From Methanotrichaceae archaeon (lineage in GTDB: Archaea > Halobacteriota > Methanosarcinia > Methanotrichales > Methanotrichaceae), in assembly GCA_963813075.1 (NCBI GenBank), contig CAWEXU010000013.1, positions 128,001 through 192,000 of the forward strand: a stretch of 64,000 nt of DNA, written 5' to 3'. The position numbers and the translations under genes were made by a program. Each line of letters begins with the position of its first letter. The first letter of the stretch is position 1. This document shows, in pieces, positions 26,141 through 32,981 of the stretch. The notes beneath the pieces were generated by a model. The model was not told the DNA's origin, made no database searches, and saw nothing but the letters and a program-made list of their open reading frames with translations.

Positions 26141-26521
26141 GAGAATAAAAATCTTCAACTGATTGGTATTGAGGTCTGAGGTCCATTGCACTTTGCCAGA
26201 ATTGGCAGGAGCCCGAGTTCTGGTGAGGCGCACAGATCTCATATCTTTCTATTTTGAGATTCAATCCCTTAACCTGCGTTGCTTTGGCAGCATGTTAGTG
26301 TCCCGATATGATGTAAAATAGTAGTAATAATCCTGGTGATGTATTGAATGCTGCTTTGATCGTGGCAGCATTCTGATCATTCTCCGGAATTATAATATGT
26401 TCTGTATCCATACTTGAATTGTTTCTACCACCCTTTTCCCCTTTCTTTTCTTAGTTGAATCAGTAGGATGCTATGGTCCGACTCCGTTCGGCGGTATTAT
26501 GGGTAATGTGGATAAGTAGCA

Positions 26522-29500
26522 CTATAAGGCCAGATCATTTTTGGGCGCGGTCACGTTGCCGGTCAGCCGCTTGAATTCGACCGGAAGCTCTACCGCAGCT
26601 TCACCACCGACAGTAGTCTCCACGGCTGTGCCCGCTTTGATATGGCCCAAATCCAATCCATCGAGGTTTAACCCCAACTGCCCTTCCAGATCCGCTTTCA
26701 AGGTTCCGCTGCCGGTCACTTTCACGGTGATCTTGATATCTTTGGCCACTTCTTCCGCCACGATGGTGATATTGATGGCCTTGCGGCCTTTGGTGATGGT
26801 CGCGACGATATTTGCTTCAATCGGCACTTCGCGCTTGGTCACGTGATTGCTGAGATCGATATTAAAGGCGGGATTGCCGGCAACGGATGGAATGCGCGCG
26901 ATGGTATCCAGGGAAAGCGGAAGCCTGGTTCGAGTGCCCTTGATCTGGATGGTATACTCAGCGCCGGTTTGAATATTGACTTTGCCCGCGCCAACCCCAC
27001 CGGCGGTCGAAGTAGTAAACGAATCGCCGATCGGCCCAATGAATTCTATGTTGAACACACCATTCAGCGGCCCGGAGATCGAATGCTTGAAGTTAATCGT
27101 CACCGTAACATCGCTGCCCGCCTTGCCTCCCTGCATCTGCTGGATAGCCTTTTTCACGTTTTCGTTGTTGTCTTGCTTGGTGATGGTTCCCTTTACGGCC
27201 TGGTTCTCGGATACTTTTATCTGTTGCTGCGCTTCCGCTGGGGAAATCGTCTTTTGCGACGGCTGTTGTTGGGCTGGTTGGCTCACCACCACCGGCGTGT
27301 TGGCGTTTTTGCTCGCTTTATGCTGCTGCTGGATTTCCTTGGCTTTATTGGACGCTTGGTTAATGTCGACGGATTTGTCTGCCAGTTTTTCAAGCAGGTC
27401 TTCCACTTCTTTACTCACCGACATATCGCGGAAGATGTCTGCTTTGCCCAGCAAGTTCAGCGCGCCCGCCATACCGGTTGGGTCGGGCAGATTTTGCGGC
27501 GCGACTATATTGACGATGGAAGCGGGCATCGGCGTAGGGGTCAGGTTCTGCGATACGTTGCGGGATTCGTTGATATTGAGGTTATCAATCCCCGGAGCCT
27601 CTTCCGTGATGGGTGAGGTCTGCCAATCCCAAAAACGGGTGTCGTCAATTTCTTCACTGATATTGCAGTGCCCGAGTTTGCCTTCCGCAAATACCCCACG
27701 CGTGGGCAGGGTCATCAGTTTCTCGACCTTGATCGGCTGCAGGGCGTTCAGGTCTTCATTTTCCTGGAAAGATTTCCGCGCCGGAAAGACTACGTAGTCC
27801 CCCAGAACGTCGATCGCGCGATTATCTATCATATCGAGAATGGACGTGCCCGATGAGACCACATCCTTGAAGCGGTAAGCTCTTTCGTTGGGATCTTCCA
27901 GGAGCCACAGCGCTTTTTGATAGTGGAAGGCATTTGCCGATAGGTGGCTCTTCAGGTCGTTAATGCAGCAACGTTCTGCTTCGGTCAGAAGGTCAGCGGG
28001 ATCCTTGGGGATCTCGCGATAGGGGATTAGGTTAAACAGATGCTCTGCATCCACCGGGATATTGATCACATCCGTGCTTCTTACCATGACCCAGACCTTG
28101 TCGCCGCTGGTCGTCATTATTTGCACGCCCTCGATCTCCCATGGTTCAGATGGGCCGGATGAGCTGCCCTTATCCTGGCTGTTTACCCGCAGGATGATGC
28201 CATCGATATCGTTCCACAACACTTTACGGAAAGGCTCAACGTTGAAAACATTTTCCTGCCCGGCCTGCCGGTAATTGGCACTGACCAAATAGGTCGTGCC
28301 ATCATCGACGAAATCTGGGAGAGATAAATCGGTATGAGCCAAACGAAACCCGCTTGCCCAGAGCGGGTCTTTTTCCAGGCAATTTATCCTCTCGCCGCTC
28401 TTTGTTTTCACCGCTACGGATGGGAAACCATGCGTTGCTGTCTTTGTTTTAATGACCAGTTTGATCGGGCCTAACTCGTTGACGTTATTCAAATCGGGCT
28501 GCAATGCCGCCTGGGCGGTTTTCCGGGCAAACTCAAGGGTAAAGCAGACCAGTTTTTGCACGGCATCGAAACAACCGGCGTAGCGCGAATCGAGCAGCAC
28601 ACTTTCCAGAATCTTGCGATATTTGTAGATAATATTGGTGTCCAAAAAATCCACAGGCAGGTACTGGACCAGCAAGGATGGCCTGAACCGCATATACTGG
28701 GTGGTGACCTTATAGTGCCGCAACACCTCGTAGTACAGTATGGTCAGGGTGTGAGAATGGTTGTGGTTGGCTACCACCCTGGTTTCGGCTTTGGCCTGCT
28801 CCTGCTGATCCGATTGGACCACGATAGTGCTTCGTAGCTCTCGCACCGCAGAGCTGGCCTGAGCAAAGGCGTCCGAAATTTGCTGCGCAGTAGAAGCGTG
28901 GATATTCCGGTCGCCTGAGCTGGTGGAATAGCCGCCGCCAAGCGCGCCGGAAACTCCCATACCACCTCCTCCATACGAACCAGCTACCCCACCCATAAAG
29001 CTGCCGCCTCGCTGCCATTCGCGCAAGGCCGCATCCACCGTTTCGGACACGCTGCGGTCGCGGTGCGTATTGTGCGCTAACTGCTCCTTCACGGTCAGGT
29101 CTTCATCCCTTGAATCGATCGATTTTCTCGCCCAATCGATCACCGCCATTTTTCTCGTTTCTCCAGGCGCTAAAGGCAGGCTGTAGATAATTTGCCCCAA
29201 CGTGTGCCCCAGCGGCTGCCAGGAAACCAGGTACTCTAGCGACCACCCCGTGCGAACCTCGGGTTTCACCAGAATCTTTTTTGTGATGACCTGATTGCCA
29301 ACCTGGGATTCTTCGTCCCTCGTTTCTGCGGGGATGATAATTTTGCTGCCGCGCAGGATCTGGAAGAAACGGAACTCGTGGGTAGCGAAATTGGCCGGAT
29401 ATAGATTTTCGCATCCGTCGACGCCGATAAAGAACGCCGGATTGACTGCGAAGGAACCGGGCGAAAGGTACCAGTCTTCCAGGCTGGGGTTCTGCATCGA

Positions 29501-30196
29501 AGGCAGGTTGACCGCCTCAAGGAAATGGTAATCCTCTGGGACGTCGAAGTGAACCTTGCCAAAAACCACGTTCGGGGTAAAGCGGGCCTGCTGGGAAACA
29601 TCGATGATCATATCATCTTTGCCCAGCGGGTAGACGTTAAACGCAACGCTACTGGCGACAAACTCTTTGCTGCGGGTCAGCTCCTTGAATCGGGCCAGCG
29701 CATGGGTCAGGTCATACGACAGGTAGCCAGCCTGATCGCTGGCCAATGTGCCCAGTGGATAGGTGTACAGTGTTATTTTGTTCGGCTGCGAGCTGGTGGG
29801 AACCTGAAAATGATCCAGCCGGTCTTTGACGATGTCTCTGACCAGGCGTTTCTTATTTTCCTCGGTTTCGGAATTGACCCAATTTCCCTGGATTTTTTCG
29901 AGGATGTCAATATAAAATGCTCGCTTGTCTGGAATATTATTGAAATCCTCCTCTGTAACGCTGGCAGCAATGGCTTCATTAATCCACTGCAATAGATAGG
30001 TGCGGCTGGAATACCACTGGCGGATCGAAGATTCATTCTCCAAAAATTCGATCGGCTCGTCGATGTTGTACGGCGGCTCTTCGGTGGTGATACTGATTTC
30101 GGCGTAGATAGGGATGTTTTTCAGTAAAACGCTGGTGGTTTTGGTAAATAAAACCAGGCTCAGGTGGGTTTGCGTGAACTCCGCAATCGTGGGCAT
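26522..30196 (-). CDS. Large hypothetical protein (~1224 aa), candidate pore-forming/toxin-like
   Basis: Uninterrupted ORF; GGAGGA sits just upstream of MPTIAEF (30196). Motifs YSLPLAPGETRKMAVIDW, VANHNHSHTLTILYYEVLRHY and LPTRGVFAEGKLG..DDTRFWDWQ. Function is inference only. Confidence 0.75.
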   Translation of the reverse strand: MPTIAEFTQTHLSLVLFTKTTSVLLKNIPIYAEISITTEEPPYNIDEPIEFLENESSIRQWYSSRTYLLQWINEAIAASVTEEDFNNIPDKRAFYIDILEKIQGNWVNSETEENKKRLVRDIVKDRLDHFQVPTSSQPNKITLYTYPLGTLASDQAGYLSYDLTHALARFKELTRSKEFVASSVAFNVYPLGKDDMIIDVSQQARFTPNVVFGKVHFDVPEDYHFLEAVNLPSMQNPSLEDWYLSPGSFAVNPAFFIGVDGCENLYPANFATHEFRFFQILRGSKIIIPAETRDEESQVGNQVITKKILVKPEVRTGWSLEYLVSWQPLGHTLGQIIYSLPLAPGETRKMAVIDWARKSIDSRDEDLTVKEQLAHNTHRDRSVSETVDAALREWQRGGSFMGGVAGSYGGGGMGVSGALGGGYSTSSGDRNIHASTAQQISDAFAQASSAVRELRSTIVVQSDQQEQAKAETRVVANHNHSHTLTILYYEVLRHYKVTTQYMRFRPSLLVQYLPVDFLDTNIIYKYRKILESVLLDSRYAGCFDAVQKLVCFTLEFARKTAQAALQPDLNNVNELGPIKLVIKTKTATHGFPSVAVKTKSGERINCLEKDPLWASGFRLAHTDLSLPDFVDDGTTYLVSANYRQAGQENVFNVEPFRKVLWNDIDGIILRVNSQDKGSSSGPSEPWEIEGVQIMTTSGDKVWVMVRSTDVINIPVDAEHLFNLIPYREIPKDPADLLTEAERCCINDLKSHLSANAFHYQKALWLLEDPNERAYRFKDVVSSGTSILDMIDNRAIDVLGDYVVFPARKSFQENEDLNALQPIKVEKLMTLPTRGVFAEGKLGHCNISEEIDDTRFWDWQTSPITEEAPGIDNLNINESRNVSQNLTPTPMPASIVNIVAPQNLPDPTGMAGALNLLGKADIFRDMSVSKEVEDLLEKLADKSVDINQASNKAKEIQQQHKASKNANTPVVVSQPAQQQPSQKTISPAEAQQQIKVSENQAVKGTITKQDNNENVKKAIQQMQGGKAGSDVTVTINFKHSISGPLNGVFNIEFIGPIGDSFTTSTAGGVGAGKVNIQTGAEYTIQIKGTRTRLPLSLDTIARIPSVAGNPAFNIDLSNHVTKREVPIEANIVATITKGRKAINITIVAEEVAKDIKITVKVTGSGTLKADLEGQLGLNLDGLDLGHIKAGTAVETTVGGEAAVELPVEFKRLTGNVTAPKNDLAL

Positions 30197-30828
30197 ATAA
30201 GTTCCTCCATAGATATCGGTTGATTGAGGCTCTTCCAAAATTGCGTCATTTGACGTATTCAGACCACCATATGCAGTGGTTTCCCAAAGAATGTCACACA
30301 TGATGCGCAATTTTGCAACTGGCCCGTTTTTCCAATTTGTGTGATCACTTCCGTTGTCCGAACTTAGAGCAGACAGTTTTCTCTTGTCGAAGCCGAAGTT
30401 CGGCATGCTGCCGTAGTCCAAGCCTAAGCCGTCGTCTTTTTCCTAATTTCTTTTATTCCCTTTTCGCATGGCTATGGCGGTGGATGATCATTGTCAAACC
30501 CTCAGCGGCGCGGCGTCGCAGCATCTGCTGGAAGGTCTAGTGGGGATTCTGACCCTCAATACATCTACATTTGATACTATTCCATAGATTTAAAGCTATT
30601 TATAAGTATTTAAGAGGACTCCTATGAACCTACTTTCCTTAGCTATCGAAAAATTATATAATAATAAAACTATCCATTAAAATGAATTTGCTAACAGCTC
30701 GGGGCCTCCGAGATGCCCAGAGAGCTTCAGAAGTCCTGCAATAATAAAGTTAAATTTGATTGTCGGTATTTATAAGTAATATAAAAGCTATATAATGATT
30801 AATCAAGCAAAAGTTGTGGAGGCTACAT

Positions 30829-32784
30829 ATGACAAATACGGCAATCAAGCTCATGGGGCTGATTGTTCTCTTATCCTGCAGCTGCCAGTCGGCTTATGGC
30901 ATAAGCTTTGGGGCATCGAGCAATGGCGTATCGAACCAGTTCGATGTACAGGCTGATGAATCATCCAGCATCAGCGGAAGTATACTACTGGACAACATGG
31001 GATTGGAGACAGTCTTTTCTGGAAGCAATATCAAGAAGTTCAACCATACTTATGAGTATCCCGATTCAGAAGGGAATAAGGCTATTTTATCGGTTGACCT
31101 GGAGAAGGCAAAGAAAGTTCATCTCTCCGTTTCTCCAGCCGTGGGCTTTGCCGAAGCCTCTGAGACCTTGAGCGTAAAGGATGCAGATTTGATAAAGGCT
31201 GGATCACAAGCCATTACCTCAGAGGGCGATAGCGCTAAGGTGGAACTGAAAATTATTGAAGGATCTCTTCAGGGATACGAGAACTATGCCAATGCTAACC
31301 TGATAAACGACTTTGGCGATAGGGTATTTGTCGCCTGGCAGAGGGCAGATATTGCTTCTGGAGAGATGGTTGAATCCAGCTCACAGGCCGCTTATGGCCC
31401 AGAAGACTCTTCCCTTCCACCTGTATCCCAGGTAAATTCTAAGATGGTGGTGACAGACGGACAAATCAGTGATCTATTCAGTGAAGCGGGAAGACGTACG
31501 GCTTTCTATTCCTGGGATAATGAAAACAATAACGGGTTTAGTACCTATAATCAGATATATGCAAGCCAATCTGCAAGTGCCATAGGCGCAACCGCACGCA
31601 TGGGTAAAAAGCCCTCAACAATTGCGATGGTCTTTAAATCAGAGACTTCCTCCATTGATTCAGAGGGGAATACTGCAGGACTAAGAACATCAGTGCTGGA
31701 GGGGACCATTAACAATTACAGCATTGAGGCCTATGTAGGTTCGCAAGTACGCTCAATTTTGTCCTCTGATGGTTCCTACAGCAATCATGAACTCGATAAT
31801 TACACGTCTACATGGCAGAATACGGGCAATATATCTTCAAATGAATTCAAGACGCAAGTGATCGCTGCGGAAAAAGATAAAAATACCGCCATGCTGGAAA
31901 CATCTTTAATAAACGGTACAGTCAACGGTTACAGCAATGGAGCCGGTGCAGACTCAAGTTACCATTATAATTCTAACGGCTATTTTGAGGCCGCAAGAAA
32001 TGCAAATGCAGATTGGTCTGCTGCGGATGCAGATGCAAGCGATTTTAAAACATTTATGTCCGCTGAGAACGCTGATGGTGATAGAGACATCCTAATGAAT
32101 TCCTTGATTGATGGTGCATTCAATGATCTTTGGAGCAGCAGAATACAGGCATCCACTTATTCATATTTTAATCCGGAAGAGGGTTTCCATAAGCATAAAG
32201 AATTAAGCTCAGAGCAGATTATTGGAGCCTTAAACGCAGGCAGTCTCACAAGCTCTTTGATCGCTTCAGGTACAAATAAAAGCAAGTCGATAGCCAGTTT
32301 AAATGCATCGGATGCATATCTGGAGAACCTATATTCACATAGCATAGTCTCAAATGATGACCCTTACGAAGTCCCAAATACTGAAACCTATAATCAAGCG
32401 GATTTTATCTCCGGAAGCCTGATAGAAGCATTGTCTTATTCTCGAGATCAGATGAACAATGCTACATATGCAGCCATGCGACTGGAGGGCACTGATGATG
32501 CAGATGGATCGACTGCAGTGTATCGCCAAATTGCCCTGACCGCTGGTCCAACTTTCGAGTACTATCCAATCACATTAAGCTGGATAATATCCGTAGAATC
32601 AGCTTCAGGAAACGGAACATTCTATGCTGGGGCCACTGATGGAATGGCAACGAGGAAGCTTATGGTGAGCACAATCCTCGAAAACGAGACATTCACCACC
32701 TTCGGGAGAGTGAGAGACAGCAGTCCTGGCACTTACTTTAGCATACCGGATACGGGGGTCGATCCATATAACTATATTTTTTAA
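30829..32784 (+). CDS. Secreted Ser/Asn-rich protein with internal repeats
   Basis: Signal peptide MTNTAIKLMGLIVLLSCSCQSAYG; recurring block (S/A)EG(D/N)xAxLxxxxxEGxxxxY. Confidence 0.75.
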   Translation: MTNTAIKLMGLIVLLSCSCQSAYGISFGASSNGVSNQFDVQADESSSISGSILLDNMGLETVFSGSNIKKFNHTYEYPDSEGNKAILSVDLEKAKKVHLSVSPAVGFAEASETLSVKDADLIKAGSQAITSEGDSAKVELKIIEGSLQGYENYANANLINDFGDRVFVAWQRADIASGEMVESSSQAAYGPEDSSLPPVSQVNSKMVVTDGQISDLFSEAGRRTAFYSWDNENNNGFSTYNQIYASQSASAIGATARMGKKPSTIAMVFKSETSSIDSEGNTAGLRTSVLEGTINNYSIEAYVGSQVRSILSSDGSYSNHELDNYTSTWQNTGNISSNEFKTQVIAAEKDKNTAMLETSLINGTVNGYSNGAGADSSYHYNSNGYFEAARNANADWSAADADASDFKTFMSAENADGDRDILMNSLIDGAFNDLWSSRIQASTYSYFNPEEGFHKHKELSSEQIIGALNAGSLTSSLIASGTNKSKSIASLNASDAYLENLYSHSIVSNDDPYEVPNTETYNQADFISGSLIEALSYSRDQMNNATYAAMRLEGTDDADGSTAVYRQIALTAGPTFEYYPITLSWIISVESASGNGTFYAGATDGMATRKLMVSTILENETFTTFGRVRDSSPGTYFSIPDTGVDPYNYIF

Positions 32785-32981
32785 ATTCGAAGCTCTTTTG
32801 GGCTTAAGGAAGTGGCATCGGGGCAGGGCAGGACAATACAAATGGGAGGGTTGGGCAAAGTCGATTGAAAACCAGGTAGGAGGAAAAGATGGTCGTGATG
32901 GTTGTGGTCGACTTTCGCCCGCTCTATACTCGTCATTCAACGATATATAAATCTATGGTACAGATCGAGCAAGACCATCAA

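Follow-up and report, generated by a model that had tools for sequence, protein, structure and literature searches.

A horizontally inserted gene of a Methanotrichaceae archaeon and its large, undescribed protein family with a long hairpin of β-type register

Proteins that build β-barrels and toxins with exchangeable C-terminal domains are the described systems closest to the protein treated here, a 1224-residue product encoded in a Methanotrichaceae archaeon (assembly GCA_963813075.1, contig CAWEXU010000013.1, positions 128,001 to 192,000; this stretch of 64,000 nucleotides, from whose first letter coordinates are counted, is called the window). The stems of aerolysin and protective antigen are about 100 Å long; that of protective antigen and the B components of binary toxins is a long β-barrel (~105 Å) which lies mostly outside the membrane and serves to deliver an enzyme. 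The pore region of CEL-III undergoes a helix-to-strand transition. In cholesterol-dependent cytolysins (CDCs), such a switch forms the barrel, each protomer supplying two hairpins out of a single domain (PMC9558359). Polymorphic toxins combine a constant N-terminal part and an optional papain-like peptidase with C-terminal domains that are exchanged, among them OmpA and REase-9 types (Zhang et al. 2012, PMC3482391).

We consider it probable that the 1224-residue protein is a one-chain, modular, oligomeric, envelope-spanning β-barrel toxin or translocase which is directed against other microbes, belongs to an undescribed family and was acquired from bacteria. An earlier note made from the letters of this DNA had proposed a β-barrel toxin or injection-type protein; this proposal is supported in part, namely for the horizontal origin, the hairpins and the β-rich insert, and a clear match to a named toxin fold was not found.

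The core hairpin and its relation to known stems

The gene and the parts of its product are arranged as follows.

26522..30196, minus strand: gene for the 1224-residue protein (read-out of the open reading frame, ORF; homologs aligned from M1)
30203..30208, minus strand: GGAGGA ribosome-binding site, 6 nt 5' of the ATG
29507..30196, minus strand: N-terminal region, residues 1-230, β-strands around a helical insert, variable in length within the family (homolog alignment and model)
29159..29383, minus strand: base strands of the core, residues 272-346, of which 312-330 run antiparallel with 494-512 (covariation and models)
29006..29158, minus strand: stem arm 1, residues 347-397, helical in the monomer model, with β-register covariation with arm 2
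28928..29005, minus strand: Gly-rich hairpin tip, residues 398-423, putatively membrane-spanning, its length varying in steps of four, disordered in the models
28769..28927, minus strand: stem arm 2, residues 424-476 (covariation and models)
28661..28768, minus strand: near-invariant N-x-N-H-x-H motif and return strand, residues 477-512 (conservation; 481 covaries with 847)
28031..28498, minus strand: PLAT/C2-like insert, residues 567-722 (model), predicted to bind a membrane or receptor
27362..27994, minus strand: second conserved block, residues 735-945, with helices, a returning strand (823-839), the motifs H-C-N-x-x-E-x-x-D and W-x-W and a Pro-rich segment (conservation and model)
27131..27361, minus strand: Gln-rich linker with short helices, residues 946-1022 (sequence, homolog alignment and model)
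26525..27130, minus strand: swappable C-terminal domain, residues 1023-1224, an Ig/transthyretin-like sandwich
26564..26740, minus strand: second amphipathic hairpin, strictly alternating, residues 1153-1211 (shuffle test and conserved pattern; low predicted local distance difference test score, pLDDT)

A mean-field coupling analysis of 309 sequences (effective number, Neff, 225) gave 821 or 823 as the best anti-diagonal sum i+j in each of four segments spanning residues 340-408; the chain therefore turns back near residue 410 and keeps its register as far as the pair 347/476. The covariation thus describes a single nested hairpin of about 130 residues (~347-476) with β-type register over its whole length. 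For residues 361-392, which are helical in the model, the sums 817, 819, 821 and 823 scored 0.45, 0.78, 1.27 and 0.50, respectively, and the sums 818, 820, 822 and 824 approximately zero, sum 821 standing 7.2 standard deviations above 72 other diagonals. When random halves of the sequences were analysed, 821 ranked first in five of eight halves and among the top three in all eight, and one of the sums 819, 821 and 823 was first in seven. As a control, a modelled helix pair was smeared across both parities and a modelled strand pair peaked at one sum. A short branch of the family with ~440 residues repeats the pattern independently, although more weakly (sums 317, 319 and 321; Neff 47).

The lengths of the hairpin parts point in the same direction. 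In the 440-residue branch, all 118 of 118 members have two arms of 63 residues each. Both arms are likewise free of insertions and deletions (indels) in the non-redundant members of the long family (190/190 and 191/191), where this constancy by itself is weak evidence, because several other core blocks are also 96-99% invariant. The tip measures 21, 25, 29, 33, 37, 41 residues and so on, its length being 1 modulo 4 in 162 of 191 non-redundant members (a count inflated by relatedness), and such steps of four are expected when both strands of a hairpin that alternates between inside and outside lengthen together. Seven of the eight very long relatives conform to this rule and one is mis-anchored, and two of the three plasmid-borne relatives that could be parsed deviate by one. 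The support for the Gly-rich hairpin is thus covariation and indel periodicity and not hydropathy alone. A β-hairpin had been proposed here before, and it is supported, but it is far longer than assumed, and its flanks are modelled as helices rather than strands.

AlphaFold models the hairpin arms as helices, which in combination with the β-register covariation suggests a helix-to-strand switch, the arms being helical when the protein is soluble and β when it is assembled. With 63 residues per strand at 2.8-3.2 Å per residue, the length of the barrel is estimated at ~175-200 Å. One property weighs against a membrane role: in the window protein, the hydropathy alternation of the Gly-rich tip is not significant (p=0.90). 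Gly, Ser and Ala make up most of this tip, one face of which bears Phe400, Tyr408 and Tyr423. Across the family, the hydropathy of the arms has the 3.6-residue periodicity of helices. Helical periodicity and both models also favour an alternative in which the arms remain helical and form a long α-helical hairpin with a β tongue, as a helical channel or adaptor of the kind known from ClyA, Tc A subunits and efflux adaptors; weak Foldseek rows for MexA/AcrA (E 1.8-4.7) can be added in its favour. Alongside the single-parity covariation of the modelled helices, we regard this alternative as very unlikely.

Searches with the core gave no clear match to a solved fold, including aerolysin (a five-stranded core with a pre-stem loop), MACPF, gasdermin and binary toxins, the folds which the earlier note had named for comparison. 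The likeness to aerolysin and ETX/MTX2 proteins lies in one long Ser/Thr/Gly-rich hairpin per subunit, nested in twisted strands, and in a swappable binding domain ahead of the returning strand; the single-hairpin stem follows from the covariation register and the four-residue indel period, and its membrane insertion is predicted. Aerolysin/ETX-MTX2 clusters are also the nearest named ESM clusters to the 440-residue branch (0.77-0.78, a lead only). In contrast to aerolysins, the family has no Pfam or PDB-sequence match and no clear fold match (the Pfam profiles Aerolysin, ETX_MTX2 and Toxin_10 matched no families at E<=1), and it combines a stem of ~130 residues and helical arms with variable C-terminal cargo and the lack of a signal peptide. 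The putative helix-to-strand switch is shared with MACPF/CDC proteins, but covariation reveals one nested hairpin in the core instead of two on a bent four-stranded sheet, the second hairpin lying 700 residues away in a module which is missing in 167 of 287 relatives, and Foldseek returned MACPF/CDC in non-significant rows only. A long single-hairpin stem is also the feature shared with protective antigen and CEL-III; compared with protective antigen, the estimated stem is longer here, the cargo is fused rather than separate, PA14 and Binary_toxB domains had no Pfam or PDB sequence match, and no enzymatic A component is encoded alongside as a conserved neighbour in 79 loci of the long family.

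Binding insert, conserved motifs and exchangeable C-termini

The insert at residues 567-722 adopts a β-sandwich fold in the model, and the β-rich inserted domain recognized earlier thus corresponds to PLAT, a membrane-binding fold. Its likeness to the C-domain of clostridial α-toxin and to lipoxygenase PLAT is limited to this 155-residue insert, the match being to the binding domain (chain 250-370) with no catalytic part. One plasmid-borne relative (L110) carries a tectonin domain at this position and has no C-terminal module. The two near-invariant motifs, N-x-N-H-x-H (window 28754-28768) and H-C-N-x-x-E-x-x-D (27644-27673), both on the minus strand, are accompanied by positions 481 and 847, which among the 309 sequences switch jointly (S/S 206, C/C 40, A/A 32); motif pair and covarying positions possibly form a metal site, a latch or a self-cleavage site. 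Positions 542 and 744 are both Cys in 71 of these sequences, and a single Cys occurs in 10.

The C-terminal regions are exchanged between otherwise similar proteins: 287 such regions fall into 58 communities, and C-termini of different clusters occur on cores that are up to 84% identical. Pfam matched nine of 72 C-termini from genome loci (four of them amidases) and left 63 without a match, and in a set of 35 proteins, partly picked for their annotations, C70 peptidase, Amidase_6, Amidase_2, OmpA, GH25-like and PG_binding_1 domains were found; an M48 peptidase is also among the named cargo domains. All eight relatives of more than 2140 residues have a C70 peptidase after the core, followed by an amidase in two and by a REase-9-like domain (below the cut-off) in one. 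In P0354, a restriction-endonuclease-like domain (residues ~1920-2060) follows the C70 peptidase and is itself followed by a hydrophobic stretch, and the end of P0180 has a similar motif. In plasmid-borne members the domain is DUF2272 (Haladaptatus, an archaeon), Hedgehog/M15 or, below the cut-off, OmpA, and a 1817-residue member from another archaeon ends with an HExxH motif. A wall-hydrolase-like domain is also present in archaea without peptidoglycan (L107). Archaeal peptidoglycan hydrolases reportedly kill bacteria. Amidase_6 and DUF2272 are placed among the peptidoglycan amidases in PMC10318531.

The conserved N-terminus with exchanged C-terminal domains agrees with the architecture of polymorphic toxins; the family differs from them in having no known trafficking domain, adjacent immunity gene or cassette array, and its core is not described in the accessible portion of PMC3482391. 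The C-terminal sandwich with its alternating hairpin of 60 residues is shared by the window protein and 120 of the 287 relatives. Because the alternation is strict (p=0.0006, 5000 shuffles) and its pattern conserved, this second hairpin is real and the more classical amphipathic one, as had been suspected for the C-terminus, with the addition that its domain is one of many swappable ones. Its best PDB profile match, residues 309-366 of CEL-III, is not significant (E 0.19) and concerns the hairpin only.

The same domains bear on a self-anchored tube or stalk, in which the long barrel would reside in the producer's own membrane and display the C-terminal domain (an adhesin or wall remodeller), or secrete it, across the producer's own envelope. 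Ig-like, OmpA and peptidoglycan-binding domains are compatible with anchoring, the C-terminal module is absent in some members (L110 and the 440-residue branch), and the neighbourhoods contain neither immunity genes nor toxin cassettes. Conflict is a better fit for unrelated C-termini on near-identical cores, for the succession of a peptidase and a nuclease-like domain in one chain and for the wall-hydrolase-like domains of peptidoglycan-free archaea, and the distribution is mobile and very patchy, so that we consider the self-anchored stalk unlikely.

Family distribution and insertion at gdhA

The 1224-residue protein has no match in Pfam, NCBIfam, PADLOC or the PDB sequences, and it is no orphan as had been thought: 458 of 7999 scored candidates are homologs, and a profile search returned 3972 clusters (50% identity) at E<=0.001, of which 2141 reached 1e-30. 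Homologous genome stretches were confirmed in 403 of 480 cases in Actinomycetota, Pseudomonadota, Bacteroidota, Bacillota, Cyanobacteria and others, and the taxonomic spread is that of a large, mostly bacterial family of many phyla. Its members are named "hypothetical" or after an accessory domain, and neither literature searches nor the accessible part of 10.64898/2026.07.27.741052 yielded a description or relevant mention; the family is real, large, unnamed and undescribed. The short branch (2675 matches among 8000 scored) shares homology with the core according to hhalign (97%, E 3e-11, 180 columns). It is strongly conserved, has longer hairpin arms and is represented in a genome of the host's family by a core-only form of 449 residues (L081:901-2250, minus strand). 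In a very distant archaeal branch (L117:4585-7860, split in two ORFs, and L118:2266-5643), the hairpin is shorter and the N-terminus long and helical.

Two features mark the insertion of the gene near gdhA.

26295..30740: inserted segment of ~4.4 kb (comparison with genome G062, locus L098)
26294..26425, plus strand: terminal fragment of an IS256/Mutator-type element without transposase, with 86% identity to the end of an element that occurs in multiple copies

The gene is horizontally inserted. In G062, gdhA adjoins a 656-residue ORF, and an unrelated spacer of 83 bp replaces window positions 26295-30740; the 132-bp element end, whose multicopy counterpart encodes a transposase of the Mutator family (Transposase_mut, E 3e-47), sits exactly at the start of the insert; and none of the 58 other genomes of the genus was matched with the protein as query. 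The horizontal acquisition claimed earlier is thus supported. At higher ranks, one of 104 genomes of the family (the distant 449-residue form) and four of 400 other genomes of the phylum were matched. Among the named relatives, the nearest ones come from bacteria (Flavitalea, an Acidobacteriota bin and Caballeronia; 74-79% over the core), and judging from these sequences the gene was probably transferred recently from bacteria. Since mcrA is present on the same contig, the host is a methanogenic archaeon, and its gene content suggests that it may be Methanothrix-like. The 656-residue ORF (window 30814-32784, plus strand) has a signal-peptide-like start, a GC content of 45% and no Pfam or NCBIfam match. 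G062 has it next to gdhA, whereas G035 and G044 do not, which indicates that the site has received more than one insertion. A segment of ~120 bp (32842-32965), whose counterpart stands directly after gdhA in G035 and G044, may mark where the variable region formerly ended on its right side.

The gene is an uninterrupted minus-strand ORF from ATG 30196 to TAG 26522, preceded by the GGAGGA site, as the earlier note had reported, and all peptides quoted there are found in the translation. The open frame extends back to an in-frame TTG at 30421, a start that would lengthen the protein by 75 residues; as the closest homologs align from M1, however, translation likely begins at 30196. Hydropathy indicates neither a signal-peptide-like stretch, in agreement with the earlier description, nor a transmembrane helix (N-terminal window 1.44; best 19-residue window of the protein 1.19). 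The deviating codon style noticed before holds for the use of GAA and AAA (98.9th percentile of 174 long ORFs rich in GC at third codon positions), but not for the overall codon distance (78th percentile of 223 ORFs) or the codon adaptation index (25th percentile of 882 ORFs). Contigs of RNA libraries from four studies overlap parts of the gene, which does not amount to a demonstration of transcription; a contig from run X5 passes over the 290 bases 30245-30534 ahead of the gene, with 30 letters on its shorter side, and may come from a strain variant.

Neighbourhoods and proposed mode of action

An all-against-all comparison of the 79 loci of the long family disclosed, among the clusters listed, no neighbour that recurs beyond genus synteny, so that the gene-neighbourhood check proposed earlier gave no conserved partner, the encapsulin loci excepted. 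Pfam scans of 128 of the 143 nearest neighbours (72 loci) gave a mixture of housekeeping, regulatory and mobile-element genes with a few toxin-antitoxin or defence genes, and no small downstream gene that could confer immunity recurs in the examined loci except a ~120-residue ORF in three encapsulin-linked ones. In four loci (L018:4246-10361, L027:8566-14325, L046:120-5926 and L053:3287-6165), a divergent encapsulin gene lies 31-66 bp upstream of the gene for a family member that has an additional N-terminal domain; three of these loci also contain the ~120-residue ORF, conserved and helical, downstream. Two of three metagenome encapsulins of the same type precede the same N-terminal domain (L104 and L106), and the third precedes another protein. 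At L105:2692-7933, the same encapsulin type is followed by a PG_binding_1/YHS protein; the next gene there we take to be galactose-oxidase-like. The encapsulin linkage is confined to one clade, and the window copy stands outside it. With regard to export, the protein lacks a signal peptide, and an injection-system marker (Pvc16_N) occurs in only 17 of the 50 carriers, compared with 37 of 104 genomes of the host family. The host genome itself has markers of a contractile injection system (tube and Pvc16_N) at G000:C31:68550-71362.

The missing signal peptide and the peptidases fused in relatives also suit an intracellular suicide or anti-phage effector similar to bacterial gasdermins, which would lie latent in the cytoplasm, be triggered by proteolysis and pierce the producer's own membrane from inside, with the fused amidases acting like endolysins. 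PLAT domains also work from the cytosol, and TIR, caspase, PIN, ParE, HepT or patatin genes occur in the neighbourhood in a few cases. The fold-search listings contained no gasdermin. PADLOC gave no match, most of the 128 scanned neighbours are unrelated housekeeping or regulatory genes, and lectin inserts and the covarying Cys pair (542/744) suggest an extracellular role; we therefore judge the intracellular effector to be rather unlikely.

For the preferred reading, a β-barrel toxin or translocase acting on other microbes, we infer ring formation, pore, translocation, export and target, which may be linked in four steps. The protein, made without a signal peptide, would leave the cell by lysis, in vesicles or with a particle. 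The PLAT insert (fold from the model), replaced by a lectin in some relatives, would then bind the target surface. Monomers would assemble as a ring, in which the arms 368-397 and 429-455, helical until then, would refold to one β-hairpin of ~130 residues per subunit, giving a barrel of the estimated length across the wall or periplasm whose Gly-rich tip (398-423) spans the membrane. The C-terminal module on its Gln-rich linker would finally act as a variable warhead: cell-wall hydrolases or peptidases would either open the way or, like a nuclease-like domain, be the delivered load, and in the window protein the second amphipathic hairpin might itself enter a membrane. The targets would be other microbes, mainly walled bacteria.

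A wider proposal is more tentative. The thousands of clusters could form a new superfamily of single-chain nanosyringes, with the window protein as its founding member, in which a latent helical hairpin becomes a β-barrel of ~18-20 nm that bridges cell wall, S-layer or periplasm and is combined with interchangeable surface-binding modules and with wall-cutting, protease, nuclease or second-pore modules. The two hairpins of the window protein could pierce two membranes, one clade might be packaged in or displayed on encapsulins, and peptidoglycan-free archaea could adopt the system against bacteria without immunity genes.

If these readings are true, a very large unnamed family (~4,000 clusters at 50% identity) would represent a new structural class of β-pore-formers or translocases, with predictions for the residue register, the length of the barrel and the segment that spans the membrane. 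Its stem would exceed the classic ones in length, and its range of cargo would indicate microbes rather than animals as targets. The encapsulin clade would be tied to conflict rather than metabolism, and bacteria and archaea would have an added way of attacking walled cells that needs neither a secretion machine nor an immunity gene.

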